NCBI GenBank assembly: GCA_008632985.1
Contig: QPGO01000119.1
Coordinates: 124,001-188,000 of the forward strand
From: Psammoneis japonica
Lineage: Eukaryota
DNA length: 64,000 bases
Reading direction: 5' to 3'
Positions 3,277-26,155 of this stretch are shown here, piece by piece. The notes under the pieces were generated by a model that was given only the letters and a program-made list of their open reading frames with translations, did not search any database and had not been told where the DNA came from. Position numbers and translations under genes: made by a program. Numbering within the stretch: position 1 is the stretch's first letter; each line of letters opens with the position of its first letter.

Positions 3277-3632
3277 AATAATACAAAATTTGGGGTGGCC
3301 TTTGAAGACGCATACTAGATGATGTGATACAGTATGATTTTAAGAAGGTGTGTACTTATTTTCAGATTGAAATAGTTAGTGGTAGATCCATTTTCCGTGT
3401 CCGCAACTTAAATCGTCGAACAGCTTTTGCGCCGAAGTGACCAACTCTGTGCCCTCCATATAGCAAACTCGGCGTCCAAGCCAAACGTAAACACAAGACC
3501 TAACCGCACGGTCGGGCCAGTGACTGGACCAGCTCTGTGGAAACTGTGTGCTCCTGAAAAGAAAAACAACATACCAGGTTCGGTAGGGATGCTCCTCAGT
3601 GAAACTTTTTTTTTCTTGCTGAAAGCTGCGCG

Positions 3633-5438: not shown

Positions 5439-7348
5439 GGCTTCTTCTCGGCCTCTCTCGAGTCATGAGGCACTGAAAGGTCCTCACCATCATGCTTCTT
5501 CTCTGGCTTGGGAGGGACGTCAGGCGGTGTGGGAGGAACTGAATCAGGAAAAAGCATCGGTTGATCTCCATCATCATCGACAAAGTCACCCGTGGTATGA
5601 GGATTCTTGTGTCTTCCTTGGACTGACTGATGCTTCTTCATGGTTTGTCTCGAATGTCTTCTTTTGTACTGCCGGTATGTTTGGAATGGATGTATATGGA
5701 TAGATACGATACAAATGAGTTGAGTTCGGATTTTGTGATCAACGAACGCGTGTTGCACGTCTGGGTTCTCGTAGCGCGAAACTCTGATGAAGAGCTTCGT
5801 GTGTCAGTCGTGCGCCTTCAAACTGGGTCGTGGATGAATCGTGTAAGAGACGTTGCCGCGATTGCGATGCATTTGGTGCTCGCTGCCTTCAATCAACTTC
5901 CTTAACACGTCTTCAATGGTTTGTGCAGAATATCGTAAGTCTCTTTGTGATCGTATATACTTTCAGCTCCCTAATCCAGAACCTGAACAAAGAGAGAGCT
6001 TTCTTTCGGCGTACCGCATAGTCTTTAGAAGTCATAGTAAATGTCATCATAACTACCTCTGTTTCTGGAAAACGGGCGGCACAGTTTGCAGAAAGGTGGA
6101 GCGTCTGAACCACGAAACGTGACGCAATCCAAGCAAACGGGGTTGACGCAAGCCTCACAAAACGTAATGCAAGAAAGACAAAATCTCTTCGTCACGTCAC
6201 CATCATATCTGCTGGTTTGACAGACGTAGCATTCATCGATGCAACCCTCACAGCAATCCGCCGAGCCCTCTTACATGTAGTCATGCATTGAAGGCAAACG
6301 TTTGATCGTGGTACTCACATATATTGTCACTACACACGCCTCCTTCTTTCTAACCGCGTTCGAGATGTACATGCTTCGACATCACATCTGACAATTCCTT
6401 CTTTCAAGTCATGTGCAATTCGTTCCTTTTCTCTTTCGTACTTCAAACCACGCAGCTTGTCAATGTCATACCGAATCTTTTTTGTTCCTCGGCGTTATCT
6501 TGGGCAGAAATTATTGCAACCCTCGCCATGATCTTCCAATTCGTTTGATTCTTCTGACGTTCCTCCTCTTTCAGTTCCACTCTTCTACAACGGCAAGCAT
6601 CCAGGAGTAAGCGCAAATCAAACATCTTCTTTTCAAAGCCTCTGAATTCATCGTGTTCGAATGCACCCTGAATTTCGTCCGTGGCTAAGTTGAATTCACG
6701 TCTTTTGTTGCGTCGCATCGTCCGTGACGCTCTTTTCGGATACGTCCTTCTCTTTACTCGTCATTTTCTGATTCTATAGGACCTTATAAACCAAATCCAT
6801 GTATTAGCACTGTTGATAGCAAGAGCTTAAGCTTTGTAAGGAGTAAGGCGGTGGCATATAAGTCGCTTCACCTTGCTGATTGGTGTTGCGAGTGAATGCA
6901 TGGCGGATAATAGATTCTTCACCCCGTATCTTTTCTTCGTACTGAACGCCTGTTGATTTCTACGTGAAAAAGATCCAGCGCAAAATCTCGAGGAAAGATC
7001 CGCAATGCAAATGTTCAAGAACAACTGTGCACCGTACTTCGCCGATGAAGCCTCGAGCCTCGAGCCTCGAGCGCGATTATAAGCCCTACGGTATCAGAGA
7101 TACATGGATTTGGATGCTTATCTATTGCATAGGAGCGTCTCGAGATTCTTATAATGGTTTGGAATCTTGATCTCATCACACTACTACATGGACACTAAAA
7201 CTAGGGCTACATAGAGACTTTTGCACGGTAACAATGGATGGATGTGGAGGGTCTTGGCATCGCAGCTAGGTTGCGCACCAATTGGCTCTTTGTTCTCGTT
7301 CCATTTTTGTAATGTCCGTTGACGTTCTCTTGAGTTAAAATTATGGTT

Positions 7349-9639
7349 CTAGTTATTTGGTAACGAGAAGGCATATGCGGACCCTGAATTCTCACCATTA
7401 ACGTCGCGCAAAAGTGCCGTGACCCCAACGACAGTTCCATTTGCCGTAACGAAAACGGACATTCCAAACCAATCACCCGCTGCCTGTCCGTTAATTGGAT
7501 CCCCCAAGTTGCTCCATTGTTGAAAATTTGAATCATATTGATATACTGTAACTTGACCTGCTTGTTTCCGCCGGTTGACTTGGTGCCATGGACTTCCAAC
7601 GCCACAACATTTCCATTTCCGCTCAATGACACTGACCAGCCAAACCAATCCCCTTCTTGTTTTGGTCGAAGCTTTTGACCACGCCGTCTCCACTTTGCTG
7701 TGGCACGGTCATATTCAAAAACTAAGGCGTATTCTGGTTTACCCAAATGCGCACCGGCTGCCATGAACCGACCCGAGTCATCAAGAGAAACAGACCAACC
7801 AAATTCGTCTTCACTACCAAGTCCTTCAATTGGGGTCCCCATTGCTTCCCAGAGATTTTTCGACAAATTGTATTCATATACTTGCACCTGACCATCATTC
7901 TGCCCATCATTGGTTCCACGACGTGCATCATGAAATGGTGCTCCAACTGCAACAATGGATCCCTCCAAATTCAAGGAAACTGACGTACCAAATTTATCAT
8001 TGGCGGCTCCACCCAGAAGAGGTTCTCCAAGATCATCCCAAGAACGACTTTCATTATTGTACGCAAACAATCTAACTGACCCAGAATTTTCGCCAACGCT
8101 GTCATCTCCTGTTGCTCCGGCTGCAAGAATGTCTCCCGCCCCAGACAATGACACCGAAATACCAAATTCGGCGTCTGCTCCTAGTCCAAAAATATCGTTG
8201 CCACGTTGGATCCAGTCGCCGGCGGTGGAATTGTATTCAAAAACAACAACCCGGCCTGCGTTGATTTCATCACTGAAGTTTACGTCCCCGCCTATAGCTA
8301 TAATTGAACCATCAGCATTTAGCGAGACGGACGGGCCAAACGAGTGGCTGTTTACTTGCCCCACCAAATCATTCCCAACGGACACCCACTTTTCTTTGGA
8401 CGGATTGTATCTAAGTATAGAAATGAAGCCAGGCTCGAATCTTTGATGCGCTGCCACGGCCATGACAGTTCCGTCTCGCGACATGGCAAGAGACCTGCCA
8501 AGCCTATCATAGGTATCGTTCCCGTGCAGAACTTGTCCCAACGGCTGATAAGGAACATTTGGAAGCAGAGGCTCTGGAGTTGTTGGAGCTCGCGTTGGCA
8601 TTCCTGTTGTTGGGCGGAGGCTTGGAGATCGCGTTGGTATTCTTGTTGTTGTTGGGTGGGGGCTTGAACCTCGAGATGGAAGCTGAGTTGTACTGCGAGT
8701 TGGAGCTTGCGTGGGAAACGAGGAAGGACGTTGCGTATCACGGCTACCATTATCACGGGACAAAATAACAGCCATCAACGCTGCAGCAGTAGTAGCAACG
8801 GCCACCAGTACAACTCCCAGCATAACATACCATTTGCGGTGCAGGCGTTTCTTTGAACTTTCCATATCGAAGGCATCAGCGCTTTCACTACTGCTTCTGT
8901 GTAGTTCCGTAGCAACAACTTGTTCAAGCTCAGCCACCAATTCGGCCTCGAGGAGGACAGTGCTGTTGTCGTTGCGTGCCGATGGGAGATCTGTTGACTG
9001 GACGGACCCAAGATCTGAGACCACGGTCTCATTGTCGTGATTGTCCCGAGCTCGAGGAATCACCCTGCCTCCTTGGCCAACTGCGACTGCGCCAATAAAT
9101 GTTGGGGTGATATCATCTTCTTCTTGAGGCGCCTCCTCCTCTCCCTCTCCGAACCTTGGAGGATTCAGTGGTGTCGTAACATCCGCATTGGGAGGAGGAT
9201 GTGTCTGGTGGTGTTCTTCAATAGCTCCTAGTCCTGTGTGTCCTTGAGCCTTTTGTCTTTTTCTCTCATCTTTCCATTTGTCACTGTGAGAGGATAACCG
9301 AGAACGGACGTATTTATTCCCTGAACTCGAGAATCCATCATTTGCTGTCACCCTCTCATTTTTTCCGACGTGTTCTACCCTTGGTTGTCTCTTTTTTCTT
9401 TTTCCAACTTTCTTCTTTCTCTTCTCCTCGCAGCTGATGCCCGACGGTAATTTACCGACCGCTCTCACTTCTTCAGACTCTCCTTTCACGGACTCGACCA
9501 TGTTCTTGTCGACTTGGGTCTCTTGTCGATTGCAGGCGTTCGTGGCGTTGCTCCCGCCCCGTGTCGTGCGTTGCTTGTCGTCGGCCCCGACGTCGGACGT
9601 CGAGGAGGCGGCTTTCTCGTGGTTGCGGCGTTGCTTCAT
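7349..9639 (-). CDS. Type II membrane beta-propeller (FG-GAP-like) protein; one frameshift near 7600
   Basis: ORF 7207-9663 gives the N-terminus, TM (WYVMLGVVLVAVATTAAALMAVIL), stalk and propeller repeats. The last repeats (VGSPWH..AGQVTVYQYD..GDWFGMSV..AYAFSLPNN*) lie in ORF 7349-7693. Confidence 0.85.
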
Positions 9640-9977
9640 TGTGATCGAGCAAGCAAGGTTCAATGACTATGAAATAGTGCGTGAAGATCCAGAGAGAAAG
9701 AGAGCGTGAAGATCAAGATGGACGCTAACGACTGTACTTTACACCCTATCTACAGTACACGCGAATGAAATCGTGATTAAAAGATGAGATCGCGGATCGG
9801 ACAAAATCACTTATTGATTTTCAACATTTATTAGTGGTCGAAACTATGTAAAAAAATTACCATTATTTATCATACGACTTATCCAGTTCGCGCTTCCAAT
9901 GGTCCTGTCGTGAGTCCCCCCCGCCCCACTCACTTCCACAAATCAACCTCATAAAGGAAGTCGAAGAGGTTCAAGAA

Positions 9978-12566
9978 ATGAAATCGCTTGCGAAGGGAAT
10001 ACTTTTACTCCTTGCCTGTGCCTGTAGTCAAGCAAAAGGTATGAAAATTGTGAGATTCACCAAAACTGATTGCCAGCACAGTACAGAAATGTTCCACTAT
10101 TCTCATCTTCATCCTTCCGCAACATGCATCAGTAGATAGCGTGACTTCGTTATCGCAAACAAGTAAAGGAAATCGAACGTTAGTTGAAAGCCGAGGCGCC
10201 TGTTGCATGCCAAATAGCCGTAGATGCAAGTACACCAAAGCTTCAAGGTGTGAAAAGAAGTTTCGTGGAACGTTTATTGGGAATGGTGTCGGATGCGATC
10301 GAGGAACGTGCCCTCCGCCTACAGGTGCGTGTTGCATTGCCACCACAGAACAATGCATGAACAGAAGTAAGAAACGTTGTGAGAATGAAGGAGGTGTATT
10401 CAAGGGGAACGGAACACCATGTAGATCTGTCTCCTGCAGAGTGAGGAATCCAACACCCGAAAAAAGCCCACCCCGCCTAAGTAAAGGACCCGGTGCATGT
10501 TGCACCCAAGATGGACAATGCTATGAAACCAACAACGAAAAGACTTGTTTTAATAATGCTGGCTACTTCCAAGGGAACGGCAGCACATGTAAAGGCAACA
10601 GCTGCCCGGAAAAGCAGGATTATCAGCCAGTTCAACCACGAGTTTTCGTCCTCCAGAGTTTCGTTTCGCTTCTCTCCCCTTTGTCTGGAGAAGAAGTCTT
10701 GTTACAAACCGGAACACCACAGAATGATGCGCTAAATTGGTTGGTCTTTGAAGCTTTGTCAACCGCAGGAACAAGCGAGGACGAGGAAATTCCGGAGCGA
10801 TATGCTCTCGCCGTACTATTCTTTTCGACGCAAGGACAAGGCACGTTTTGGAACTCGTATCGCAACTTTCTCTCAGAAGAACATGTTTGTGATTGGGCTT
10901 ATGTGCACTGCAATGGTGGCACAATAAACAAAATCATAATCCGTAAGTGTTTTGAAATGCAATGTCTTGAGTCCGGAGATTGTTTGTCGGTTCTAACAAA
11001 GGTCATGCTTGGAAAAACATCCAACGTTCCACAGCGAACAACAATTTGCACGGCACACTCCCCAAAGAGCTCAGCATCATGTCAGACCTGAAGTCCATCG
11101 AGATGGAGTATAACTTCCTCACGGGCACTATTCCTCAAGCTTTCGGTAACCTCACAAAGCTGGTGCGGTTCGATGTCAGTTTCAACTCAATGACTGGGTC
11201 GCTTCCGCCATCCCTATTTCGAATTCAGAGTCTTAAGAAGTTGAGGCTTGACGGAAACATCTTTTCCGGGTCATTACCATCCACGTTTGGAAGGTCTATA
11301 CTCGTACTTACATGCAGCGATTGCTCGCTGAGTGGCAAGATACCAGAATCCATCGGAGACCTGAGTGGTTTGTTGCACCTTGATCTATCGTATAATCGTT
11401 TCACGGGTAAAATTCCTTCCTTTCTTCGAAGCACCAAATTGACAAAGCTGATTCTTAAAGGGAACATGCTGACAGGTTCAATCCCAAAATCTATCGCAAC
11501 CTTAACTTCCTTGGGCATTATTGACATTAGGGAGAATTTTCTTTCTGGTACGGTACCGCGATTCAGTGGCACAGAATTGCTTGAGGTCAGGGCGAACGAA
11601 AACAATCTGACAGGTTCCCTTGACGATTTTTTCGATTCGTCTTCGGAGACGATTACTTGGGTGCGTTTCGAGGATAACCAGCTATGGGGCTCTGTTCCTG
11701 AAACAATTGGCAACTTTATCCATTTGGAAGAATTGGATTTGTCTAGGAACAAGCTCGTGGGAACAATCCCGCCCTCTATTGGCAACCTTAGAAACATTTC
11801 GACATTGGATCTCCATGACAATTCTTTAAACGGCCCTTTAACTTCTGAAATTGGGAACTTGTTGGATCTGGAAGCGCTCGATGTCGGCAGAAACTTCTTG
11901 ACGGGTGTAATCCCTCCATCGGTTACGACCTTGCCCTTGTTAAGCGTCCTGTTGTTGGATGGAAATTTCTTGAATGGAGAGATTCCGTCTTTTGTTTCCA
12001 AGAAGCTAGAACGTGTCTGGCTTGGGGAAAATGAACTGGATGGGTCGCTTCCATCGGAACTTGGGCGAATGGATAATCTTCGAAGCCTTGATTTGTCAAA
12101 CAATTTGTTGACGGGGTCGGTTCCCTCGGAGCTTGGAGGACTGGAATCTCTTACCAGCTTTGATTTGTCAAACAATGCTCTCACTGGGTCATTCCCAGCT
12201 ACCACGTCCAATTTTCATTTTCTTGGTGGGTGCTTTCTGACAAGAGCGAGTCTTTCGGTGTTTCTTGTTTCTTCAACACTATATGAACTTACAACATATC
12301 CTTTTGTTTCGAATGTTTTCTCGATTCTCGTAGACGAGCTTTACCTTTATGGAAATGATTTTGAAAACGATTTTGGCGATACCTTTTGTGCGCGACCACA
12401 CAGGGACATTGATGTATTCTTCTCGAATTGTTTGGATGATGCAGTGGACTGCCCATGTTGTTCTCGCTGCTGCAATCGCTTCGGAGACGGGTGTAAAGAC
12501 AACCCCCCTTCTTCACCAACACCCGTGCCATCATACACACCTCATGGTGATGGATACTTTGATTGA
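9978..12566 (+). CDS. Secreted LRR protein with three N-terminal GACC Cys-rich repeats; introns 10039-10132, 10943-11034 and probably 12226-12333
   Basis: Exon 1 MKSLAKGILLLLACACSQAK (signal peptide) splices in phase to ORF 10141. Diatom-type LRR N-cap (PQNDALNWL..ERYALAVLFFST..W..VCDW..V.C), plant-like LxxLxLxxNxLxGxIP repeats, C-cap CPCCSRCC. Confidence 0.88.
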
Positions 12567-12699: not shown

Positions 12700-13162
12700 C
12701 GGTGGGTCGTGCCATTTCATGCCGGATGCTGGATGCGGATATGCCGGGCAGATGCAATGCCGGGTGGAAAAAACACGAGGGTTCAACTTTTCACCTTCTC
12801 CCAATCCAAGTGTTCGCCAGCTTGGTTAACAAGCCCTACAGTGTCAGAGATGCATGGCTTTGAATGCCAAACTGTTGCATGGGAACGTCTCTAGATTCTC
12901 AGGATAGCACGGAAATTTTGTCACTCCATTTCAGACTCAAGGGAGGGCGACACTTGTCCATCACAAAGAGCAAGGCGAGCGCCTCAAACCTCAGTTCACA
13001 ATGAAAGAATCCAATGATGAAATCAGCAAATGCTGGTGGACATTGCTTGGTGAAGAGCATCATAAACCACACTCTGACAATGGTGACAAGAGTTGCAACA
13101 AACAACCCAAAAAGGCACAAAAAGCGGGGAGTGCCCCCAACGTTGTCTTGCACTGGGGTCCC
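12700..13162. other. Partly TpA/CpG-depleted degenerate sequence; left edge of the large decayed-TE block
   Basis: Few TA and excess TG/CA compared with the upstream LRR gene. No recognisable product. Confidence 0.45.
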
Positions 13163-13551
13163 GACGCGTTCCAGCCCTAGGTGGGACTCCGTGTGACATT
13201 GGGCCCGTAGAATTCTACGTGCGAGCTCCGTAGTACGAGAATTTAATTAATGTATATATTTATCTTCAACATCAAATAAACGGCCAAGTTTGTGGTACAA
13301 TTATGCCTCTTACCACTCGACGTTTTTGCAAATGCACCTGCCCTACGCGATTCTTAAGACATTATAGAATCGCGCTGTAACAAAAAATGTCAAAAGTTTT
13401 TGGACGGATCGCTCAATAAGTGTACCGTAAAATGACACAAAATGTAAAAAAATCACGTAGAATTCTACGTGCGCGACATACGACGAGATTAAAAAAACTA
13501 TCGATGTCACAGTTCAGTAGTACGAGGTCCCACCTAGACCTGGAACGCGTC
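13163..13551. mobile_element. Non-autonomous DNA transposon (MITE), 389 bp, 25-bp TIRs, 4-bp TSD TCCC
   Basis: Left end gacgcgttccagccctaggtgggac; right end gtcccacctagacctggaacgcgtc (reverse complement matches at 23/25). TCCC on both flanks (13159-13162, 13552-13555). Internal direct repeat cgtagaattctacgtgcg at ~13206 and ~13456. Confidence 0.9.
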
Positions 13552-13555
13552 TCCC

Positions 13556-14900
13556 CGCCGGTCCAACCAGACAAGCAGCCACCCATTGCACTGCCAAGAC
13601 AGCAACATTGGACCCCCACAATGGCAATCATCAAGAAGGGATGCTGGACTTCTTTGCTGCCATTGCAAGCAGTCAGTCCCGCTGCAACCCCGAGGCACTG
13701 TGCGCACGCCCAATGGGGCCACACCTCGGATCACAACATTTCAATGGCCATCGCAATGCACTGCAGAGCACAGGGCAAGCGGGAGACCCAGGATGCACTC
13801 AGGCAAGTCATTGGATTTCACTGCCCTGCTGCGGTGGTTGGAGACCCACAACCATGGGATGACAATCAGCAGTGTGGGCTGGTTGGCGAGATGCACCACC
13901 TTGCCCAGCACCAAATTGCGGCATTCCCAGACAAACAGATGAAGTCATGCAGCTCATGCCAGCAGGCACACACATGCTCCTGGGTGACAGCACCACTTTG
14001 GCCACCACACAAGCTGACCAGGAAAGTTCATTTGGCCACGTTGCCAGGGAGATCAAACAACGACATGTTCTGGAAACATTGCATTGCCTGCGGACATCCA
14101 GAATCAACCATGGTGCTTCCCCTTCTGCATCAAGGGCCAACACAACACAATTGCAGAAGCCACACTGACCACCACCATGGCAGCACTCAAGAAGAGTGCC
14201 GAGATGCATTCTTTGCTTGGGTGGAGGCCAGCTGGAAGACCAAATGGGTCTTCAGCAATGGCCCAAGTTTGGGGGCTGAGAACTGAGGCCATGATTGCCA
14301 GCTGTGTGAATGCAGCCACCCCCACCACCCCCACAGGCAGTGAGGTTTGTCAGTCAATGACCATCTCTCACCACACACATGGACAGGCTGCTCTCATTGC
14401 TTCAGCTCAGTCTGACAAATCAGGTGAGAGCATTTTGCATGATGCATCTGCACCATGTTGTCATGGCCTCAGCCATTTGTTGCATCTACATTGTCAACAA
14501 GATGACTGGGGTCCATTGGAGCAAGCACAACACCACCTGATCCAATGGATCCCAACCCAAAGGGTCACAAGCAAACACTGCTGTGGCGCACCTGCGGCCA
14601 TTGCTGGTGCACCACAGAATGCTGAGGAGCTTGACAATGGAGTCATGAGTGCCCCCCACAAGTCTGCTTGTGAGTTTGTTGATTTCCTGCATGAGGACAT
14701 GGCGGATCATGTTGATGAGGGATTTTGGGTGGCACAGTGCCCTGCTGCGGTCAAGACCATCCCTGGTTTGCACATCAGTCCTGTCAGGGTTGTCCTGCAA
14801 TGTGGCCACTGACCCAGACCAATGGTCCACTGCACTTTCCTTGGCACCAATGATGCCACGCAACCCAATGCAGCCATCAAGGCCATGCAATTTGGATGTG
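13556..14900 (+). mobile_element. Decayed tyrosine-recombinase (DIRS/Ngaro-like) retrotransposon, 5' part up to the start of RT
   Basis: PHKSACEFVDFLHEDMADHVDEGFWV..VKTIPGLHISPVRVVLQCGH*PRPMVHCTFLGTNDATQPNAAIKAMQFG matches, from recall, the diatom YR-element RT start (HKSA..FL.EEM.....GFW.VLPY..V..LPGLR.SP.GVVPQR.RRPR..VDY.F.GVN......EAMQFG) once Y->H/C and R->H/C/* changes are reversed. Confidence 0.8.
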
Positions 14901-17600
14901 TCAGCACCCCATTCTATGGATGACAGACAGACCTGGACAGATCTCTCCAAGACAAGACAGACAGATCTGCTTCTCTCATTCTTTCTCACCAGCGCACGTG
15001 TTGTCCACTGTTGCCAGTTTGCAGGGAGCTCTTTAGCTTGTTGCTTTTGCCATCGGCACTCTGTCAGGTCATGGCCTCATCAGGTTGCTTTTTCCTCTGC
15101 AGTGCAAGCCTCATCTTGATTTGCTCAGATTGTGAGCCAAACAAGCCTGCCACCATTTTTCCATCCCAAAGGTGAGATTTTTCATTGATGCGCAGGCATC
15201 ACACTGGAAAATCAGCACCAGGTTTCCACCATGCATGACCAATTTTTTGCACACTTGTGCACCATGATGGGTTGCAAGTTCAAAAAGAGCATTGTTGATG
15301 TGCTCAAAGTGATTGAGGTTGTTTTTCAGGAAAACCCTCATTTCCCTGATGACACAAAGTTCCTGAAGAAGATGACTTTTGCATGGTGACACAATTCTTG
15401 AACTTGAATCAGTTTTTGAAGACAACAAACACACCCAAGCCAAGGACGGTGTTCATGAGCTCACATGGGACCACATCCTTCACCAGTTCATCATGCCTCA
15501 CAAACAAGGGACCCCAAGGATGCAACAGCTGTTGCATCAATCTTCAGTCAAGCTCCTCTCATGGTGAAGACTTGATGTCCATGGTGGCAAATCTGTGTCT
15601 CCCCTCTCCCAACAGACACTTGAACAGAAGATCCAACTTGCTCTTCAAGAAGGCAATTGGGTGGTGTGCATTGTCATTGGTGCAGAGCATGTGCACTTCA
15701 ACTCCAATCTTCAGTGGCCCTGCACGGACTGGAACAAGTTCTGCTTGGCACCACAAACATCCAACTGAATGTTTTCATCTCCACCATCATTGGACAAAAC
15801 TCCCACATTGGTTTTAACATCCGATCCTGTCATGGTCTCATGCAAGGATGCATCAAGTCCTCCAAGGCCACACATGACACCTGGCGGGTGAAATGGAGAA
15901 CCCCTTGTGTCTTGCATGACCAAGGATGTGCTGTGCAGGACTGACCTGTCACTTGTGCCCCCTGCAGCAACAACAGCAAATCAGACATCAGCACATGTTG
16001 ATGATCTTGTTGTGATGTTGTGTGGTTCTTCCTTGGGGCCCAAATTGCCAACTGTGGCTGCCAACACATCTTCTGGAGGTCCTGCTGTGTCTGTTGAATC
16101 CATTGATTCTGATGTCACTTCCATTGCCAGGGACACTGGGAAAGTTCAAGCAGGTTGCTGTGTTCAGGTCCAAAAGAGCCTGATCGCCGCCATGCCAAGT
16201 TGCACCCCAACTCCATGGAGAGGGTGTTTTCCTTGATTGTCCCTCAGATGCCTTCAAGAACATTGCATGGCATGATCTTGAGATCCCTCAGGTCAAGATT
16301 GCCAGACCTGTGCATTTCGACAAGGACCTGTTCATCCTCCCTCATGTGAGGGATGGATGCGATCAGGGCACTTCCCGCCCTTCCAGTGACCATGATGGAG
16401 GATGCAAGAAAGCTGCTGTGTGCTTTCCACTGCATCTGTGACCCATCATTGACATCCTCATGGCTTCATGGCACATCCAAGTTGGGCCCAGTTGTTGTGT
16501 GTGCTGCTTGCAGCTCTTGCACCACTGTTGTGTCTCAAGTTTGCAGCGCACATTTGCTGTGGGTGCCATGATGGATCCCAGGAATGCTGTTTCAACAAAC
16601 ACCAAGTCTGCTGTGTCTGTTGTGAGGCCTGACAGCAGGCCATCTACAGCGATTGGTGGTGGCTCCCCAGCTGCGTTGTCCACTGATTTGGTGGAACTTC
16701 ACTTCGATGTCCAAGCCAGCTTTCTCTTGACCCCAAAGTTTTTTGGTTCTGGCAGCCCCACTGTCCCGTGCAATGGTGGTCACATTCATCTGTTGCACGG
16801 GCTGCACTGCATCACCAAGGTCACCCATGAGCTGCTTGCCACCTCTGTGATGCCATCATGTGGTGCTTGTGGATGCAGCCACAGCTCCTCTGTTGGCTGC
16901 CAACAAGTTGTTTCATCTTTGGATTTTTGGCTCAGCCGCCATCAACTCTTTTGGACACATGACACTGCCGCTCCTTCCATCATTTGAACAAGACCATTGA
17001 AAGCAGGGCGGGTGGCTGTCAAAGAGGGCCACCAAGTCTCACCACCTTCTGCTCTCCCACCTCTTTCCTCTGTTGTTGGGACCACTGGCTGTTGTGTCCA
17101 CTTGTGCTTTTTGTGGTGCTCTGGACCTGCCCGCCATCGCTGACAATGTGCAGTGTGCATGCAGACAAAAGGTTGTTTTTGTCACGCCCTTTGTGACATT
17201 TAAAGGCTGTGACACGTCGCCGTGATGCATTGGCTCTTGTTGGCAGCTGTGTGTTGCACTCCTCCCCATGTGTCACGCGTCCATGCGGCTCTTTACTAAC
17301 GTGCACTGACACTGCACGGTTTTGGCGGAACAGTGTGGGTGCGTGCGAAGGAACACACAGAACTGCACAGAGTTTTGCGTGTTCGACAGTGATCAACGTT
17401 GCTGCAGACAACTCCCACTCAGGGTTTCGAACCCCTGGCCTCCTGCCTGATGGTTGCGATGAACCACTCCGCTGTGAATTCACAGTGCAGTGTGCATGCA
17501 GACAAAAGGTTGTTTTTGTCATGCCCTTTGTGACATTTAAAGGCTGCAACACGTCGCCGTGATACATTGACTCTTGTCAGTGGCTGTGTGTTGCAAATGA
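14900..17600 (-). mobile_element. Unidentified decayed insertion nested in the YR element
   Basis: Interrupts the RT right after AMQFG, has the same TpA/CpG-depleted composition, shows broken protein-like frames on the minus strand and ends in a 111-bp direct repeat. Family not recognised; boundaries and strand approximate. Confidence 0.4.
17148..17595. repeat. 111-bp direct repeat, copies at 17148-17258 and 17485-17595
   Basis: gtgcagtgtgcatgcagacaaaaggttgtttttgtca...gctgtgtgttgca occurs twice with few substitutions. Confidence 0.95.
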
Positions 17601-17699
17601 CCCTTCATTTCCTGATCAGGGGAGGGAGCAATGTGACACAGAGGAAGCACACAAGATTGACAAGTGTGCCAAGTCTTCCAGTGGTGAGTTGTTGGGTGA

Positions 17700-19489
17700 C
17701 CAAGATTTGCACGTTGCTGAAAATTCACACCCACCAAACATTGCCCCATTTCCAACAATGAACAAGGCACTCCATGTTGCACCATGTTTGTCCAGTGAAC
17801 TTTCCAAGGATGCAGAGCAACGCAAATGCCGCGCTGCCTCTGACTGTTGCTGCGCCTCCTGGGGGGAATCTGGTTGCTCTGCACATCACCCCAGCAGGCT
17901 CCTGGGGCTTGTTTTCAGAACTCCAAGAGGCCCTCCACCACACCATGTCCAACTCACGGGTGCCGCATCTCACCACTGACATCCACACCATCTTAGATGA
18001 CTTCCGAGATTTGCACTCCACACTGGACAAGCCCCCCACACAAACTCCAGAGTTGGCGCCACTTGCACCTGCCATCCACAGCTGTCATGACACCACTGGA
18101 CATGGTGCAGGCAGAGTGTTGTCACCAACGCCAACCACCTGACCACATGCTGCCTGCTTGCAATGCAGCCCACATGCTCACAGCTGTTGACAAGATGACC
18201 TTGGCCCCAATTTGTGGCTTGTGCCTTTCCTGCAGGATGCTGCCAGTTTGTTTGCCACATGTGAACATCCCAGTGGCCCAATCCCCAGCACAGATCTGAG
18301 ACCAGTTGGATCCATCATCCAAGGTGTCACAGCTGCTCAATGTTTTGACATCCATGAGTGTGCTCACTTGCAACATGCAGACAACAGCTTGGGAACCTTG
18401 CATGTTGGCAACAAAAAAGTTTCTCTGCCACAATGAAACCCTGGTCCAAGCTCCAAGCTCCAAGCTCCTCTGCCATCAAGCCTGCCACCAGCATTGCCAT
18501 CACCAAGTTGGCCTTCATGACTGCACACACCTGGGCCCATCAACGCTGCAGCAGGCAATGCCTCCCATGTGCAATCACTCACCAACTCACAGCTCTTGTC
18601 ATGTTTCAGCACTGCTTGCCCAAAGAGCAAACTGTGGACCCCACCACCCATGCCATGTTCCTGCCTCTGATCTTGGCACTGTGCAGCACACCATTGCCAA
18701 TGCAGCTGCCCTTCAAGACCCACCACCAACAAACATTGGGGCTTGTTGACCAACTTCTTCTGGACACTGAATTGGCCATCAACCCACTGCTGCTCCAAGA
18801 ACACGATGACCCAGTCCTTTTCCTGCAAGTCTTCCTTGGCAATTTTTGCACAAGACAAATCACTCTCCACCACCACCATTGAGTCCATTGCTGCACTGCT
18901 GAAGAGATGCCCCGTGGTTGTTTGGCCATGTGCTTGCTTCAAAGGGGGCCATGGACCTGTGCCTTGCATTGCAAGGGAACATGGATTTCCGACCCATTGT
19001 TGCAAAAAAGAGGACCCACCACCAGGCCTGGTCAAACCAGTGCCAGTTGCCATCCTCCGCTGGTGGATTTTGTCAGCTGCCACAACCAGCCCACACCCAG
19101 GCACCTCAGCCACCATGGACATGATTGCTTTGACACACTTTTTCCTCACCCACCCTGGCAAATGTGCTGCCATGCCATCCAACACCACCTGACCTTCAGC
19201 ATTGTGCTGGCAGCACACATCTGCATCTTTTTGCCACTCCAGATGCCCAACTTGATGCCTCCACCTTTGCCACTCTGACACTTGCCACCCAGAAGGAGAG
19301 TGGCATCTGTGGTGAGGTCATTGGTTTGGGCTCAGGCCACCCCTGACTTTGTCCAGCTGAAGCTTGTCTCTGCCAGATCCCGGGTGAAGCACAGGTGCAC
19401 CCATGGTGCACTTCTTCCTGATGCACATCTTTCACCCCATTTCTCTGCAGAATGATGGTGCCATGTTGCCCCCACAGATGTCATGTCCA
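17700..19489 (+). mobile_element. Decayed DIRS/Ngaro-like retrotransposon, 3' part: RT end/RNase H and tyrosine recombinase
   Basis: AGSWGLFSELQEAL..DIHTILDDFRDL..PELAPLAP..HDTTGHGAGRV resembles the RNase H start DASG.GAGGV. EDPPPGLVKPVPVAIL..MDMIALTHFFLTHPGKC and STFATLTLATQKESGICGEVIGLG..LCP resemble YR motifs FFFLLRPGEY and TF.TQKNG.RGE.I. Confidence 0.8.
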
Positions 19490-21860
19490 GACACATTTCA
19501 GCCCTCTCTGTCCAGAGGTGGGTGGGTGGGACTGCGTGGTGTGACACTGGGCCCACAGAATTCCACGCGCAAGCTCCACAGCAAAGTGTGAGGCCATGAA
19601 CACATGAATGACCACCAACAGAATCCAAGCCTGCGGGGAGCATTGACCACTTGTCCTTTTTTTTGGAAAAATTCTGGAGAGAAGTGCAAAAAACATGCCA
19701 GAACGTGTGCCACTGCTGGCACGGAGTGGGTCAGGCCCTGCACACATTTTGCACCACAGTGGTGCAAGCCACTTTTGTGAAGGCTCCTGCGCATGCAAAT
19801 TGGTGTGAGCTCCACACAAAAGCCTTGGAAATTGGAGTTCTTGTGGTGCACAATCTCAGCATGCAGTGGCAAAGAACTGACAAAAATTGCTCCCCAGGTG
19901 TTGTGCCAAAATCACTGCCTTGAAACAACCATGCTGCTGCACACAGTGGAGCATGCAACACTGGTCTGTCAATGCTGCCGTTGCATTGCCACAAGCTGCA
20001 AGTCATTGTTTCACCATGGCGGAACCCCCGGATGACACAAGCTTGTTGTCAGGTGTTGACAAACACACTCATTGTGTGGTGTGTTGGTCAGACTGGTTTT
20101 GTTGGAATGGTGGCCACTGTGTCACCATCATTGAATGAGGCATCTCCAGCACAAAGCAACAATGTCACTCCATCTGCTGTGACCACTCCCTTTGCAGCTT
20201 TTGCCAATGTGAGACCCAGCATCAACAACATCACCCCGGCTGCACTTGCTCCTGCTGCTGCTCCCATGGTGGGAGACTTTTGTCATCCTCAATCCTCAAC
20301 AAGTGTGGAGCTGCAAGCTGGGAAAGGCTGATGTGTGCCGGCATGCCAAAACACAAACCTTCTGGAAACAAGAAAGCTTTTTGATGAGGTTGCCAGCAAA
20401 GAGTTTCTGATGCATGGAATGTTCAACATGGCCAAAAAGATGACTTTTTCTGGTGATTTGGTTGGACTTGGCGGTGAGAATCTCACAGCAGTTTGGAGCT
20501 CTTTTAAAAAAACAGTTCCACACACCTGTCGCAGAGAATTTGTCAATTTTTAGAAAGTCCCCATGAAGTCTCTAATGTCCTTGATGATGACCATCCTTCA
20601 AATTTGCATTGATGTGAATTGAACGGCCCAGGCTGCACTGTTCCAAAAATGATGGGGGCACACTTTCAAATGGCACAACCAAGAACCCCCACCAACCAAC
20701 TGACCCCCAGAGACACAAAAAAGTCTGTGATCACCAACCCTGACAAACTCTTTCAAATTTTAAGCACATCATTTTCAGTTTGCCTGCACATTTTTTTCGG
20801 ACATTGACCCTTCAACCACCATGGAGCAAATCTCCACAGGTGGAGATTTGCTTGATTTGAGGAATTGTGATGTGTCATGCATTTGTGTGATGACACAATG
20901 AACATGGCACAAAAATGTTGCACCATGTGCAATCTGCACAAAACACACCACAGGCATTTGCTCATTGCAGACAGAGATTGGCTCCAAGGGTTTTGCATTT
21001 GGTGCTACATTGTGACAGTGACTCATCACAAATTTCATTGTCAGAGGTTGAGATTTGGCTCTTCTCCATTCACAGATGAAGTGTGCAAAAAACCCAGTGT
21101 CAAAAGTCAACATTGAACTTTTCAAATTGCAAAAATGGTCCCCCAGAGCTTTTTGGCAAATGTGTGTTCAAAAACAAAATTGTGCAATTTGTTCACCAGC
21201 CATGTCTGAGAACAACACATTCAATGCATTTGTGACGCAAGCGAGCGCCCACCTCTCCTGCCCTCTGGAGGCTCGGCCATCTGGCTTTGGGATTTGGAAG
21301 AGGTGCGCTGCAGTGCCAGCAAAGCCATCTCCACTCCAAGCAAGTTTTGGTCCTGTGTCATCACCAGTTTTTGAATCTGGAGGCACCACTCACAGCAGAC
21401 AACAGATGCAACTTTCCAGGAAATGCCGACAATTGGCATTTGACTGGCTGTGGGAATGTCTGCAGTTGTTGCACCAAACATCATGCATGGTCACAACTGT
21501 CTCACACGCACTCTGTGGTGTCTTGCAAATGGACAAACTTTGAGCTGCCACTGAATGCATGCATTTTTCATTGCGACACATCCGGGCTTGTTGCACGAAA
21601 ATCAGGAGCTCCCGCATGAAATCGACCGCCAGCCGACCATCCATGTCACACGATTGTCAACTCAACAATGATCAGCCCCATTTGCACAGAACAGATCAAA
21701 TTCAAGCCTCTTTAGAGCTGATTCCTGAATGCCAAAAATGTTCAAAACACCACCTTGACAGCTCACTTCAGGGCGGCAAGAATCAAAACATGCTCCTCTG
21801 ACTGTCCATCACCTCACACAAACGAGCACTTTTTGTTTTGGGTGCAATTTGAATCTCTGA
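19490..21860 (+). mobile_element. Hypermutated longer relative of the 13163 MITE (left end recognisable), followed by decayed coding-like sequence
   Basis: 19490 gacacatttcagccct..ggtgggac..gtgtgacactgggcccacagaattccacgcgcaagctccacagca aligns to 13163-13235. No right TIR found, so the end coordinate is only the start of the next recognisable segment. Confidence 0.55.
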
Positions 21861-21871
21861 AGTCTGAGATT

Positions 21872-22100
21872 CTTCAGAATCCATCTTGGCAGCAGTCAGC
21901 TTGGTCACAGCAGCTTCCTTTCTTTGGAACAATGCAAAAATTGGGGCAGCCTTTGAAGATGCACGTTGGATGTGACACGTCGTGATTTTGAGAAAGTGTG
22001 TGCACTGCTCATTTTCAGATTGAAACAGTCAGTGGTAGATCCATTTTGCATGTCTGCTGCTTAAATCGTTGAACAGATTTTGCGCCCAAGTGACCAACTC
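21872..22100 (+). pseudogene. Hypermutated duplicate of 3222-3447 (3' end and downstream region of the Cys-rich GPI gene)
   Basis: Collinear match, e.g. cttggtca(t/c)agc(g/a)gcttcctttcttt(a/g)gaa(t/c)aat(a/g)caaaa and ...gtgaccaactc. Confidence 0.9.
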
Positions 22101-22160
22101 ATCATTCTTTGCTTTTGTCGTGTCCAACAAATGTGGCTCACCCGCACTGCAGGATCATTA

Positions 22161-22481
22161 CTACGAATTGCTGAACAATTGCGCGATACACGTGCCCGAA
22201 GGGTGATTGTTGCTTCGGGCACGAAATTCGAGCTTCGCGCACGTAGAGACCGTAGAAAATAATATACCAGCATTCGAGAATGTCCGATTTGTGTAGATCA
22301 CGTAGCACAGTACCACAGAGGTCATTGATGAAATTACTTCAACGACTCATGCGACTACAATTAGATTTTCAATACCATATGCTATGTAGAAAGGACATCT
22401 GCGCGAAGGAAGAATGTTGCTTCGGGCAACGATATTCGAGCTTCGGGCACGTGTATCGCGCAATTGTTTTGCAATTTGTAG
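22161..22481. mobile_element. Tc1/mariner-type MITE, 321 bp, 41-bp TIRs (CTAC...GTAG), TA TSD
   Basis: ta|ctacgaattgctgaacaattgcgcgatacacgtgcccgaag ... cttcgggcacgtgtatcgcgcaattgttttgcaatttgtag|ta, with 3 mismatches between TIRs. Subterminal repeat tgttgcttcgggca..attcgagcttcg near both ends. Confidence 0.92.
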
Positions 22482-22806
22482 TACTTTGTGCTCTCCACAA
22501 CGACTCTGATCGACTCGTTCGATTCGATCTCATTCGTGCAAGCGTCAAATTTCATGAAGTCTCTCTCTAGAGCTAGAGTAGCTGGAGAGCACAAATTGAA
22601 AACATGGTGCAGTGCATCCTCATCCGGCAAGGAACGGCAAAAAAGCATCTACTGTACGAAATGGGAACTATGTATTAAAATCTTAAATGCATGTGCAAAC
22701 AACATGAAATCGGGTGAGTCAAAAACAACAACAACAACATCTCAACAGCCATCCATCATCTTTAATCTCTGGGATGCTTGCTCTTTTTTGCCGGAGGCTT
22801 GGCGTC

Positions 22807-24582
22807 TTAAAAAGTGTAGTAAGGCTTGTAAACGACAATGTCGTTACTCTCGTCTTGGGCTCTGGCCAATACCTCTTGGTTGCATTGAACAAAGGGAGAC
22901 AAGGTTGGCTTCATCCAGCACTCGACATCTTCAAGTCCCAACTCGTTCATGCGACGGAGCCATAAGAAACGCTTGTTGAGCGTGCCTTGGCCCGCGCCCA
23001 CATATTCAGGAGGAAGGGCACCAATTTCAATCAAGAGCGTTTCGTGCTCTTCGTCGTCTTGAAGCGTCGCATCCTTGGAAGCATACCAGTGCTTGCCCTG
23101 TAGTCCAAAGTTGGAGTCTCGTACTTGAAACAACGAGTTGGCTCTGTCAAGGACCAAACCGTGAATGACAATTCCGCGAAGGACGGGTTGAAAGCTCAAC
23201 ATGTCATTTTGGGTAACACTCTGTGCCATTTTGTTTCCCTTCCAACAATTGCACACGTGGTAGACAAGTGCCAAGGCGGTCCTTCGATCTTCGTTGAGTT
23301 CTTCGGCCCACGTTTCGCCATTTTTAAGTGCTCGGGCCCACGCCTCGGCTCGTTTCTCGCGAGACGCAAGACGCTCCGTCCATGAACAAGAAGTATAGCC
23401 TTGTGGTTCACCCTTTGTGACATATTTTTGAAGGTTGGTGACGCACTTTTGAAAGGACGGATCGCGATAGATAATCTCCTGAAACTCGGTCATTCTGGAG
23501 TAGGTCTTGATTTTCATTCTCAACTCTTGATGCTTTTCGAGTGGAATCTCGGCAAATTCGTCGGCACTGTTACTGCTATTGGAGTTGGTTTCTGCACGAG
23601 CAGTAGGGTGCAACTCGTTTTCAACATTGTTCTTGGACAAGAGCTGAGAATGAAAATCGGGAACAGTGTTGGAAACGAGTTGTCCAAGAACAACGTTGGA
23701 AACGAGTTGCACCGCGTCGACGATTTTGTCACACGAATGCGAATCCTGGTGGAGCTGGTTTTCCTCGTCTTGTTGCATGGGCGGTGTATCGTGTAGGCGA
23801 AAACAATTGATGAATTTATCAATCTCCTGGCGAGACTGGTTCTTCAAGAGAGCTTCGACAATCTTATCCCAGTCATTTGGATCTGTGGCCTTGGCGTATC
23901 TAAACGAAACAGGTTGCGTCGACTTGGCCCGAGGACCTGTCACGTGGGTCTTGTCCGGGACAAGTCCCACCGTATTCGCAAACATTAGTTCGCATACACA
24001 CCACAGTCGGCCATACACATCAGTTTTCGCGTTACGAAGAACAACATACTCAGACGCTTCCTTCAGAGCCTTTACAAACGGCGCTTGTTCCAAAGGGACA
24101 TCAAGCAGGTGTTTTATCGATTCCTTGTCTCCTTGCATGATTGCAAAAGAACAGATCCAAAGGTTGGGCCTCTTTGCCTTCGTCCCAAACACTGCCACAA
24201 TCGAACGAACAAAACTTGCAAAGGGCTCGGCCCAAGCGTGGGTGATGAAAGCGTCAATCTTGAGTCCATTAGGATTGTGGACCAAGGCGTATGATCGCTT
24301 CGTACGTTGACATAACGGCGCGATCATTTCATCAACAATGTCATACATGGTTTTGCTTTCGTAGTCGTCGTTTGCAAATTTGGTGGCCGCCTTCCTCTCA
24401 AATTCCATTAGCTCATCGTACGAAATCGCCCACAATGTTGGGTCCTTCTCAGCACTCTCTGTTAGTGGGCCAAAGGTGATTCCCTCTGATAGACCCTCCG
24501 CGTCAGCAGCCTGCGGATGTTCAGTTTCTGCAGCACGAGCCCTATGGTGCATGCCGTTTCCAACCTTGTTCTTGACTGACAT
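22807..24582 (-). CDS. Protein with an N-terminal HET/TIR-like domain and an uncharacterised C-terminal domain
   Basis: Motifs DAFITHAWAEPF, LWICSFAIMQ and GRLWCVCEL resemble the SH/Y.W, LW.D..CI.Q and R.W...E signature of HET-like domains. Stops 15 codons earlier than its paralog (GAA->TAA). Confidence 0.75.
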   Translation of the reverse strand: MSVKNKVGNGMHHRARAAETEHPQAADAEGLSEGITFGPLTESAEKDPTLWAISYDELMEFERKAATKFANDDYESKTMYDIVDEMIAPLCQRTKRSYALVHNPNGLKIDAFITHAWAEPFASFVRSIVAVFGTKAKRPNLWICSFAIMQGDKESIKHLLDVPLEQAPFVKALKEASEYVVLRNAKTDVYGRLWCVCELMFANTVGLVPDKTHVTGPRAKSTQPVSFRYAKATDPNDWDKIVEALLKNQSRQEIDKFINCFRLHDTPPMQQDEENQLHQDSHSCDKIVDAVQLVSNVVLGQLVSNTVPDFHSQLLSKNNVENELHPTARAETNSNSSNSADEFAEIPLEKHQELRMKIKTYSRMTEFQEIIYRDPSFQKCVTNLQKYVTKGEPQGYTSCSWTERLASREKRAEAWARALKNGETWAEELNEDRRTALALVYHVCNCWKGNKMAQSVTQNDMLSFQPVLRGIVIHGLVLDRANSLFQVRDSNFGLQGKHWYASKDATLQDDEEHETLLIEIGALPPEYVGAGQGTLNKRFLWLRRMNELGLEDVECWMKPTLSPFVQCNQEVLARAQDESNDIVVYKPYYTF

Positions 24583-25195
24583 GACGAAAGCACGGCACAA
24601 GGCGAGGGGAACTCTCTCTAGAAGCAGAGACTAGTTCTAGGGTAGAGTAGGAATAGAATAAGTAGCTTTCTCCAGCTCTCTTTTATGATGTCGGAAAGCT
24701 GGGAAGCGACTCAATCTGTCAAATCAATTGGATTTCGCGCGGTAAATTGTAGCGCGGGGGCCGATTGGATCTGCCTCTTGCACGTCGCCTTTGAAGACGC
24801 ACACTCTCTAGAGTAGATGTGATATTCAGATTAACTAGACTCTACTAGAGAGAGCGAGTGGTAGATCCGTTTTCCTTATCTGCTACTGTAGCTCCAACTC
24901 TATTTGAAATTTTTGTGCTCTCCACAGACTCTGGTCGATTCGTTCGATTCGTTCGATTCGTCTCATTCGTGCAACGAGTGTGTCATGACAACTCTACTAC
25001 ACTACAAGCATCCCCTCAAGCACAAATTGAAAACATGGTGCAGTGCATCCTCATCCGGCAAGGAACAGCAAAAACGTCTACTGTACGAAATGGGAAGTGT
25101 GTGTTAAAATCTTAAATGCATGTGCAAACAACAACATGTAATTGGGTGATAGCAAAAAAGAACCATCTCAGCAGCATGTTCAACATCCATCATCT

Positions 25196-26155
25196 TTAAT
25201 CTCTGGGATGCTTGCTCTTTTTTGCCGGAGGCTTGGCGTCTTCCAAAGTGCAGTGAGGCTTGTAAACGACAATGTCGTTACTCTCGTCTTGGGCCCTGGC
25301 CAATACCTCTTGGTTGTATTGAATAAGCGGAGACAAGGTTGGCTTCATCCAGCACTCGACATCCTCAAGTCCCAACTCGTTCATGCGACGGAGCCACAAG
25401 AAACGCTTGTTGAGCGTGCCTTGGCCTGCTCCCGCATATTCAGGAGGAAGGGCGCCAATTTGAATCAAGAGCGTTTCGTGCTCTTCGTCGTCTTGAAGCG
25501 TCGCATCCTTGGAAGCATACCAGTGCTTGCCCTGCAGTCCAAAGTTGGAGTCTCGTACTTGAAACAACGAGTTGGCTCGGTCAAGGACCAAACCGTGAAT
25601 GACAATTCCACGAAGGACGGGTTGAAAGCTCAACATGTCATTATGAGAAACACTCTGTGCCATTTTGTTTCCCTTCCAACAGTTGCACACGTGGTACACA
25701 AGTGCCAAGACGGTCCTTCGATCTTCATTGAGTTTTTCGGCCCACGTTTCGCCATTTTTAAGTGCACGGGCCCACGCTTCGGCTCGTTTCTCGCGAGACA
25801 CGAGACGCTCCGTCCATGAACAAGAAGTATAGTCTTGTGGTTCACCCTTTGTGACATATTTTTGAAGGTTGGAGAGGCACTTTTGAAAGGACGGATCGCG
25901 ATAGATAATCTCCTGAAACTCGGTCATTTTGGAGCAGGTCTTGATTTTCATTCTCAACTCTTGATGCTTTTCGAGTGAAATCTCGGCGAATTCGTCGTCT
26001 GCACTGCTGCTTGCAGCGATGGATCCTGGAGTTTCATCCGGATGCTGCTGTTGTTCGGTTTCTGTACGAGCAGATGGGAAATCGTTTCCAACAAGAGAGC
26101 AGGGATAGTTCTTGATTCCAATGTTGTGTGGCGGCGGCAAGTGATCCGCTGTCAT
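25196..26155 (-). CDS. Tandem paralog of the preceding gene lacking the HET/TIR-like domain
   Basis: Near-identical from ADEFAEI.LEKHQELRMKIK to the end. Shares start-codon context (cacggcacaaggcga), upstream region and downstream region. Confidence 0.75.
   Translation of the reverse strand: MTADHLPPPHNIGIKNYPCSLVGNDFPSARTETEQQQHPDETPGSIAASSSADDEFAEISLEKHQELRMKIKTCSKMTEFQEIIYRDPSFQKCLSNLQKYVTKGEPQDYTSCSWTERLVSREKRAEAWARALKNGETWAEKLNEDRRTVLALVYHVCNCWKGNKMAQSVSHNDMLSFQPVLRGIVIHGLVLDRANSLFQVRDSNFGLQGKHWYASKDATLQDDEEHETLLIQIGALPPEYAGAGQGTLNKRFLWLRRMNELGLEDVECWMKPTLSPLIQYNQEVLARAQDESNDIVVYKPHCTLEDAKPPAKKSKHPRD

Follow-up and report, generated by a model that had tools for sequence, protein, structure and literature searches.

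Near-complete loss of TpA beside CpG depletion in an island of decayed mobile DNA in a diatom-like genome: a probable relative of the TpA hypermutation of Bigelowiella natans

The closest described counterpart of the locus reported here is a mutation process in the chlorarachniophyte Bigelowiella natans, for which Mettrop et al. report, in the main text of their preprint, that 231 of 302 mutations arising de novo lay in two regions of integrated viral DNA (bioRxiv 10.64898/2026.01.13.699255). As given there, 230 of these 231 mutations were A>G or T>C, all of the GC-biased ones were at TpA, and the rates reached ~1000 times background, in some lines only. The same text reports 124 clusters depleted in TpA and enriched in CpA+TpG and in which domains of transposable elements (TEs; reverse transcriptase (RT), DDE) are enriched, and the candidate enzyme of its authors is an ADAT2 homologue. 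[quoted passage not shown] According to the accessible part of PMC11572971, dinoflagellates, of the SAR lineage, carry a thymine mark, 5-hydroxymethyluracil (5hmU), that is tied to TE silencing and is reported to prefer TA and TC. Here we describe a 64,000-nt stretch of contig QPGO01000119.1 (assembly GCA_008632985.1, deposited as Psammoneis japonica; positions 124,001 to 188,000, hereafter the window), in which an island of decayed mobile DNA with the remains of a DIRS-like retroelement (block B) is almost free of TpA and poor in CpG. An initial annotation, made from the letters alone, had proposed that an undescribed genome-defence mutator acted there. The part of that interpretation concerning a TpA process and a tyrosine-recombinase (YR) element is supported by the results below, and the word "undescribed" is no longer accurate, since TpA>TpG/CpA hypermutation is already reported in the B. 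natans preprint cited above. By analogy, the TpA half of the pattern would be of this recently described kind, here in a different major lineage, to which the present locus adds that erasure is nearly complete, that it is coupled to CpG decay and that it shows a preference for certain flanks. A full-text literature search on TpA depletion, hypermutation and diatom TEs returned no report of TpA erasure in diatoms.

Dinucleotide counts over positions 13556-22150 gave 19 TA (observed/expected, O/E, 0.04) and 122 CG (O/E 0.22), together with 1064 CA (O/E 1.83) and 959 TG (O/E 1.95), while the self-complementary AT (O/E 0.94) and GC (O/E 1.14) were normal. The initial annotation had estimated by eye that about twenty TA were left in ~8.6 kb, that CG was strongly but less fully reduced and that TG/CA was raised, all of which agreed with the counts. 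When the expectation was taken from the normal part of the window (TA 0.0385/bp, CG 0.0555/bp), three blocks were delimited, none of them assigned to a strand:

918-2080: block A, second erased block (TA 2 vs 44.8 expected; CG 35 vs 64.6 expected)
13567-22158: block B, TA/CG-erased mosaic of decayed mobile DNA, defined by dinucleotide counts and sharp borders
62311-64000: block C, third erased block, running past the window end (TA 2 vs 65.1 expected; CG 33 vs 93.8 expected)

In block B, 19 TA were found vs 331 expected (binomial P 3e-116), 120 CG vs 477 expected (P 2e-88), and 2024 CA+TG vs 1232 expected. Depletion of TA exceeded that of CG in each 1-kb bin of block B and in blocks A, B and C. 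The borders of block B were abrupt, with TAs dense up to 13535 and the next TA at 14487 on the left, and TA density back at 22159 on the right; the longest TA-free run inside it measured 2511 nt (17994-20505). Outside the three blocks the window was normal, as the initial annotation had held for the neighbouring sequence: each of 499 normal 1-kb windows contained at least 18 TA and at least 38 CG, and CG stood at O/E ~1.0 in the neighbouring genes, a restriction of CG>TG/CA to repeat blocks that resembles the decay of methylated CpG. The loss was visible in translation as well, with Tyr at 0.05% of residues over the six frames of block B (normal sequence, 2.09%) and a ~1.5-1.8-fold enrichment of each of His, Cys, Gln and Trp, which bears out the six-frame lack of Tyr and richness in His/Cys/Gln/Trp noted initially. 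The chemistry is opposite to that of its functional analogue RIP, which turns CpA into TpA and so creates the dinucleotide that is destroyed here; a C>T signature at CpA with an AT-rich product was not what we found in block B, where TpA stands at O/E 0.04 and GC content at ~0.46-0.53 per 1-kb window.

The coding content of the blocks was hidden from routine searches. Pfam detected no TE domain in the 104 open reading frames (ORFs) of at least 70 aa of the blocks at E<=0.1, nor in six read-through frames (X at stops) at E<=1, so elements erased in this way would escape standard TE annotation. A purine-periodicity scan, which is insensitive to transitions, was used to locate coding frames in block B and highlighted a plus frame at ~14018-14800; HMMER with the read-through of this frame against 1.84e9 representative proteins gave 282 matches (best E 9.2e-30). 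Sub-threshold RVT_1 was present in 11 of the 23 retroelement homologues scanned, the relatives' consensus contained YVDD, which we take to be the RT catalytic motif, as well as stretches resembling RNase H motifs by eye, and a profile of the homologues matched HIV-1 RT (E 3.5e-4). By tblastn the homologues mapped to two window regions, 14393-14920 and 17801-18904, the latter matched by 23 of them. Scanning of metagenome contigs with the family alignment yielded 612 pattern matches, 510 of them confirmed, and the best 80 corresponded to 78 loci. The two relative loci examined, L003 and L038, each contained three ORFs of ~690, 870 and 390 aa, the second and third of which (ORF2 and ORF3) overlap. 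An AlphaFold model of the relatives' ORF3 (mean predicted local distance difference test score 84.7) resembled Cre recombinase (Foldseek E 5.4e-7, template modelling score 0.55-0.70) among 34 PDB chains at E<=1e-3, and Phage_integrase was weakly matched in 9 of 25 ORF3 members; a single protein (P0198) and the ORF3 profile had no PDB sequence matches. On this evidence, ORF3 of the relatives is a tyrosine recombinase. Hidden Markov models (HMMs) of the relatives then placed the following remnants in block B, with independent E-values (iE):

14351-14896, plus strand: retroelement ORF2 remnant, N-terminal part leading into the reverse transcriptase (HMM from 41 metagenomic relatives, positions 51-227, iE 8.8e-26)
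17873-18886, plus strand: retroelement ORF2 remnant, RNase H-like C-terminal part (HMM positions 490-807, iE 1.9e-31)
18995-19379, plus strand: ORF3 (tyrosine recombinase) remnant in two frames (HMM positions 136-199, iE 1.5e-14; positions 205-267, iE 3.3e-11)

HMM searches of the window found no RT core (ORF2 HMM positions 228-489) between the two ORF2 remnants, no recombinase catalytic C-terminus of ORF3 and no ORF1 of the relatives, and no terminal repeats of this copy were found in nucleotide or purine/pyrimidine space. A ~3-kb stretch, which includes a very high-copy repeat, interrupts the retroelement. With RT and RNase H recognized by profile and the tyrosine recombinase by the ORF3 model of the relatives, the homology evidence supports the presence in block B of a broken DIRS-like tyrosine-recombinase retroelement, in line with the decayed YR transposons proposed initially. 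Block B thus carries RT, RNase H and YR remnants in addition to dispersed repeats, and in this respect its target, as in B. natans, is integrated foreign or mobile DNA. A read-through frame at 19612-20916, also flagged by purine periodicity, had no homologue in the protein search, and no protein family was found in blocks A and C with Pfam and the relatives' HMMs.

Several repeats inside and at the edges of block B, and one outside it, served as references in what follows; none is assigned a strand:

3226-3459: unmutated paralogue of 21877-22112, an internal reference in normal sequence, from BLAST-type comparison within the window
13148-13566: MITE-like (miniature inverted-repeat TE) very high-copy element, inverted arms of 45 nt, located precisely at the left border, not erased
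17103-17764: high-copy repeat inserted in block B, less fully erased, from k-mer depth and TA/CG densities
21877-22112: erased copy of a short dispersed repeat, 79% nucleotide identity to 3226-3459
22159-22483: MITE-like element exactly at the right border, not erased, with 43-nt inverted arms that are 93% complementary and each end in TA

Four comparisons were made of erased sequence with its relatives. First, the 235-nt repeat present both outside and inside block B (3226-3459 / 21877-22112) showed 79% nucleotide identity and 92.5% identity in purine/pyrimidine space. The 18 TA of the normal paralogue appeared in the block copy as CA (7), TG (5), CG (2), TA (2) or other (2), and its 10 CG as CA (4), TG (3), CG (2) or other (1), while 8 of 12 CA and 14 of 17 TG were retained. 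Fourteen of 18 TA are therefore now CA, TG or CG, the T:A>C:G change at TpA known from B. natans, and 7 of 10 CG are now TG/CA, which together with the CG O/E of 0.22 matches the sequence signature that methyl-CpG decay would leave. The transition/transversion ratio of this pair was 4.1, compared with 1.59 and 1.12 in two tandem gene pairs (22587/25018 and 38203/41348) used as substitution-spectrum controls in normal sequence. Second, the 111-nt direct repeats within the high-copy insert (17148-17258 / 17485-17595) differed by 9 transitions and 0 transversions. At 3 sites one copy has CA where the other has TG, an alternation that would arise if a TA or CG ancestor was hit once per copy, on opposite strands. 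Third, among the variants listed for other genomic copies of the insert (17285-17492), 12 of 12 were transitions; where the window has TG/CA, these copies had TA (5 sites), CG (1 site) or, counted as dinucleotide sites, the other of CA and TG (3 sites). Of the variants listed for copies of the left border element (13148-13566), 4 of 8 were transversions; 16 more variants exist beyond those listed.

Fourth, the remnants were compared with the strongly conserved columns of the ORF2 and ORF3 alignments (n=363), of which 170 were identical and 193 mismatched. A single TA>CA/TG or CG>TG/CA step accounts for 46 of the mismatches (15 of them TA>CA/TG), another transition for 18, a transversion for 60, and two or more changes for 69. 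The TA/CG type thus made up 46 of 64 single-transition mismatches vs a null share of 0.50 (P 3e-4), and an earlier version of the test, made on representative proteins, agreed with this. Of the 8 columns conserved for Tyr none was kept, 5 being now H or C; of the 33 conserved for Arg, 5 were kept and 18 have become H, C, Q, W or stop. The recovery of YR-element motifs by reversing Y>H/C and R>H/C/W/stop, as first suggested by eye, is borne out by these columns. The relatives themselves have ordinary TA: O/E ranged from 0.30 to 0.87 (median 0.64) across the 78 metagenomic loci, which speaks against natively TpA-free copies, and none of their 1,673 800-nt windows had fewer than 5 TA. Median Tyr in 150 protein homologues was 2.2%, and 1 of the 150 was Tyr-free. 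This protein (P0158, 146 aa) has 18.5% His+Cys+Gln+Trp and 2.7% Arg, and may come from a TA/CG-erased copy in another data set. Because the paralogue, the repeat copies and the conserved columns all show TA>CA/TG and CG>TG/CA and the relatives have ordinary TA, the composition of block B is best read as the product of mutation and not as native.

Both strands were affected. On the retroelement sense strand TA>CA was deduced at 7 sites and TA>TG at 8, and CA and TG counts were roughly equal along block B. Unrelated repeats within the block are all erased up to the common sharp borders, and the outside copy of one of them is intact, which points to targeting by locus and not by repeat family. 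The process thus acted on DNA in place, on both strands and within restricted loci. A locus-targeted T:A>C:G process at TpA on top of CpG decay, the central claim of the initial annotation, is supported by four independent comparisons: the paralogue, the duplicate, the repeat copies and the conserved columns. A proposed spread of erasure into host 3' flanking DNA was dropped, the genes beside the two short-repeat copies not being paralogues.

Copy number alone is not the trigger of erasure, because the border elements, with the highest or near-highest depth, are untouched and the high-copy insert is only partly erased. The summed k-mer depth was ~190,000 for the left border element (vs ~58 for unique sequence), which has normal TA density, ~3,600 for the right one, and ~44,000-88,000 for the insert (vs ~60 for single-copy sequence); the insert contains 7.6 TA and 36 CG per kb, compared with 0-2.4 and 7-18 in the other block parts longer than 500 nt. 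The untouched border elements and the partly erased insert may simply be younger. Several other segments of block B are present at a few to tens of copies by k-mer depth, and the greater part of the block has a single copy at >=90% identity. The repeat dependence of RIP is accordingly not evident here, although past copy number may have differed. The 111-nt direct repeats of the insert, 337 nt apart, suggest a tandem unit or one like a short interspersed element (SINE). A purine/pyrimidine-degenerate pattern derived from the insert had no match in the metagenome contigs. By eye, a stretch of the insert core (17254-17500) looked like a tRNA T-arm; this was left unsupported, ARAGORN and Rfam having found nothing in the window.

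The few surviving TAs were not a random sample with respect to their flanks. Of the 23 survivors in the three blocks, 15 were YTAR, 1 was RTAY and 7 were RTAR/YTAY, and the YTAR share exceeded the 19.3% found in normal sequence (P 1.9e-6), also without the younger insert (12 of 18, P 1.5e-5). TAs created anew would not be expected to carry the bias; YCAR and YTGR together make up ~22% of the CA and TG sites in the blocks (summed counts). Survival ratios were 0.01 for RTAY, ~0.03 for RTAR/YTAY and 0.18 for YTAR, corresponding arithmetically to a ~2.7-fold higher rate at R-T-A-Y than at Y-T-A-R, and both TA>CG double changes in the paralogue lie at RTAY. The sparing of YTAR suggests, as a reading of the survivors, an enzyme with a flank preference. 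A provisional "+1 = Y" flank rule was rejected, the informative sites being divided 6 vs 6.

The locus resembles the B. natans case, as described in the main text of that preprint, in having transitions at TpA that yield TpG/CpA, in their restriction to foreign or mobile loci, and in the same long-term footprint. The two differ in host and target, B. natans being a chlorarachniophyte with inserts of nucleocytoplasmic large DNA viruses (NCLDVs) or virophages, whereas here an island with a DIRS-like retroelement lies in a diatom-like genome. They also differ in degree and in kind: erasure is near saturation here (TA O/E 0.04), compared with a Rho of 0.45 for the B. natans NCLDV region; CpG loss is coupled to it here, whereas "CpG", like "diatom", is absent from the preprint's main text; YTAR is spared here, whereas context is given in that text as the dinucleotide only; and de novo events were seen live in B. 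natans, whereas the present locus offers an end-state footprint in sequence.

We propose, with a probability of roughly 60%, that block B represents an old mobile-DNA island, containing a DIRS-like retroelement and several other repeats, that was rewritten in place by two context-specific transition processes, the TpA eraser being an enzyme that acts in silenced chromatin. The first process would be CpG>TpG/CpA, as expected when methylated CpG decays in the silenced repeats of a diatom; diatom methylation is described in the accessible part of PMC5124317 as mostly CpG and as lying on repeat blocks of up to 30 kb. Decay of methylated CpG covers the CG half only and cannot remove TpA, so the loss of TA needs a second process. 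This second process would be TpA>TpG/CpA (A>G at TpA, on either strand), more thorough than the first, confined to the same domains, and with a preference for R-T-A-Y over Y-T-A-R, and both processes would end in TpG/CpA. With its direction, dinucleotide specificity, two-strandedness, locus restriction and flank bias as laid out above, it would be carried out by an enzyme recruited to silenced chromatin, for which a DNA-acting adenine deaminase of the TadA/ADAT2 type is the most likely candidate. The tRNA substrate of TadA/ADAT2 always presents U33-A34, which would explain the requirement for a 5' T. We infer that this would be the same kind of defence as the one acting live in B. natans. A bolder version, for which our confidence falls clearly short of even, is that diatoms and chlorarachniophytes share a "reverse RIP": a natural deaminase that acts on the TpA adenine in double-stranded or chromatin-opened DNA, prefers R-T-A-Y, and is brought to mobile or foreign DNA that is silenced, working alongside CpG methylation and driving invaders into a TG/CA-only, Tyr-less and Arg-poor sink hidden from homology-based annotation.

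Several points weigh against this proposal. The retroelement is old, 129 of the 193 column mismatches requiring a transversion or several changes, and in so old an element a slow, long-acting context bias could reach the same end state; only the 111-nt duplicate and the repeat-copy variants hint, by their spectra, at a rate that deserves the prefix "hyper". The column classification gives ties to the TA/CG classes and inflates them somewhat. The loss of ~669 TA+CG and the gain of ~792 CA+TG in block B are of similar order, a balance that presumes an ancestral composition equal to that of the normal window part. The 78 relatives are best matches, hence biased to intact copies, and say little on erased copies elsewhere. 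At informative RTAR/YTAY sites the direction of change splits 6 vs 6 (-2 vs +1 base). Finally, the sequencing run used below is probably the sample behind the assembly, which makes the read support dependent, and its contigs stop at the border MITEs with no bridge into the unique flanks.

Among other explanations, the one that fares best places the change on thymine: a TET/JBP-type dioxygenase would make 5hmU or 5-formyluracil (5fU) at TpA in silenced DNA, and mispairing with G would give T>C. Since A>G and T>C are complementary, adenine deamination, thymine oxidation and biased repair would leave one and the same sequence, and the flank bias suits any sequence-selective enzyme. 5hmU pairs mostly as T, and heavy mutagenesis would need further oxidation, which counts against this route. 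A dinoflagellate TET/JBP enzyme does make TE-silencing 5hmU, and earlier work cited in the accessible part of PMC11572971 reported that 5hmU takes the place of T preferentially in TA and TC; in block B, by contrast, TA alone is erased, TC being only somewhat lower (O/E 0.87 vs 1.11 in the whole window). What the accessible part of that paper describes is, moreover, a modification and not a mutation, and it reports no TpA erasure. We consider thymine modification an unlikely source of the pattern.

Without a dedicated mutator, TpA could be the most mutable non-CpG step in compact, methylated and poorly repaired chromatin, or be subject to biased mismatch repair, and drain slowly to TG/CA beside CpG. 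The age of the element, with 60 transversions and 69 multiple changes among its 193 mismatches, would suit such a drain, as would the fact that TA is already under-represented in normal sequence (O/E ~0.5-0.7) and is conserved less than any other dinucleotide class in a paralogue pair from normal sequence (22587-23577 / 25018-26011, 18 of 32 kept). However, TA at O/E 0.04 lies far below CG at 0.22, so its loss outpaced the decay of methylated CpG; the in-block duplicate has 9 transitions and no transversion; the YTAR bias of the survivors favours sequence-selective recognition; and the B. natans signature, in the preprint's main text, is 1000-fold above background and limited to some lines (bioRxiv 10.64898/2026.01.13.699255). 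Taken together, a passive origin seems rather improbable to us.

Editing at the RNA level, in which ADAR-like A-to-I hyperediting of retroelement double-stranded RNA would be fixed by reverse transcription, is very improbable. ADARs prefer a 3' G, whereas 16 of the 23 surviving TAs are TAR. Editing of sense RNA would yield TA>TG only, whereas TA>CA (7) and TA>TG (8) are about equally frequent and CA roughly equals TG; more generally, the substrates of ADAR and APOBEC are RNA or single-stranded cDNA and their signature lies on one strand, whereas both strands and non-retroelement sequence are affected here, unrelated repeats and the whole composite block being erased to common sharp borders with an outside copy intact. 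In favour of this explanation, block B does contain a retroelement, and ADARs favour a 5' U according to the B. natans preprint's main text (bioRxiv 10.64898/2026.01.13.699255).

Public sequencing reads were also consulted. No RNA data set was listed as containing the stretch. Run X1 contained 92% of the sampled words of the stretch, and its k-mer contigs spanned 13527-22186 save for ~16837-17565, which lies in the high-copy insert and for which no long piece was listed. Each contig differed from the window at 0-1 positions, and the k-mer depth over block B was ~58-76, compared with 58 in the unique flank. This agreement and the flank-like depth argue against an assembly or contamination artefact, with the reservation that the run probably comes from the very sample that was assembled. 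In the single-copy part, two of the three differences were sites at which the contigs have CG and the window has CA/TG (13868, 16657), and may represent allelic or recent CpG decay inside block B. A native composition, a foreign origin or a sequencing or assembly artefact, to which the presence of the stretch in one sample only would be congenial, is therefore scarcely credible given the normal TA of the relatives, the TA retained in the paralogue and other repeat copies, a depth equal to that of the flank and k-mer contigs with 0-1 differences each.

Should an enzyme be behind the TpA loss, nature would possess an A:T>G:C editor of chromosomal DNA; to our knowledge, today's adenine base editors are TadA variants evolved in the laboratory. 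That both a rhizarian and a diatom-like genome bear the footprint suggests that a genome defence is widespread in SAR algae and has been overlooked; it would act as a complement to DNA methylation and as a mirror image of fungal RIP. Estimates of repeat content may be too low unless the comparison is made in purine/pyrimidine space or on sequences "de-mutated" by computer.

The surroundings of the blocks point to a nuclear genome of a diatom-like kind, of a lineage other than that of B. natans. The window genes are long uninterrupted ORFs, and two of them are of use here:

43491-44240, minus strand: phytochelatin-synthase ORF (64 homologues, best 54% identity; all 4 organism-named matches are diatoms)
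60102-62195, minus strand: IBR-domain ORF (domain match)

A protein homology search with the IBR-domain ORF found no homologue; block C starts ~115 nt beyond its 5' end. ORFs for proteins with FG-GAP repeats and leucine-rich repeats lie around block B at 3633-12566, 30120-31127, 35495-37636 and 50582-52813, and a DUF6824 ORF is located at 56416-57123 on the minus strand. Of the two tandem gene pairs mentioned above as controls, 22587-23577 / 25018-26011 belongs to no known family, and 38203-40734 / 41348-43267 encodes WD40/beta-propeller proteins. Just upstream of block A, positions 1-419 of the window were self-similar at offsets of ~54, 108 and 163 nt in a purine/pyrimidine-space BLAST, and look like a tandem repeat with a unit of ~54 nt.

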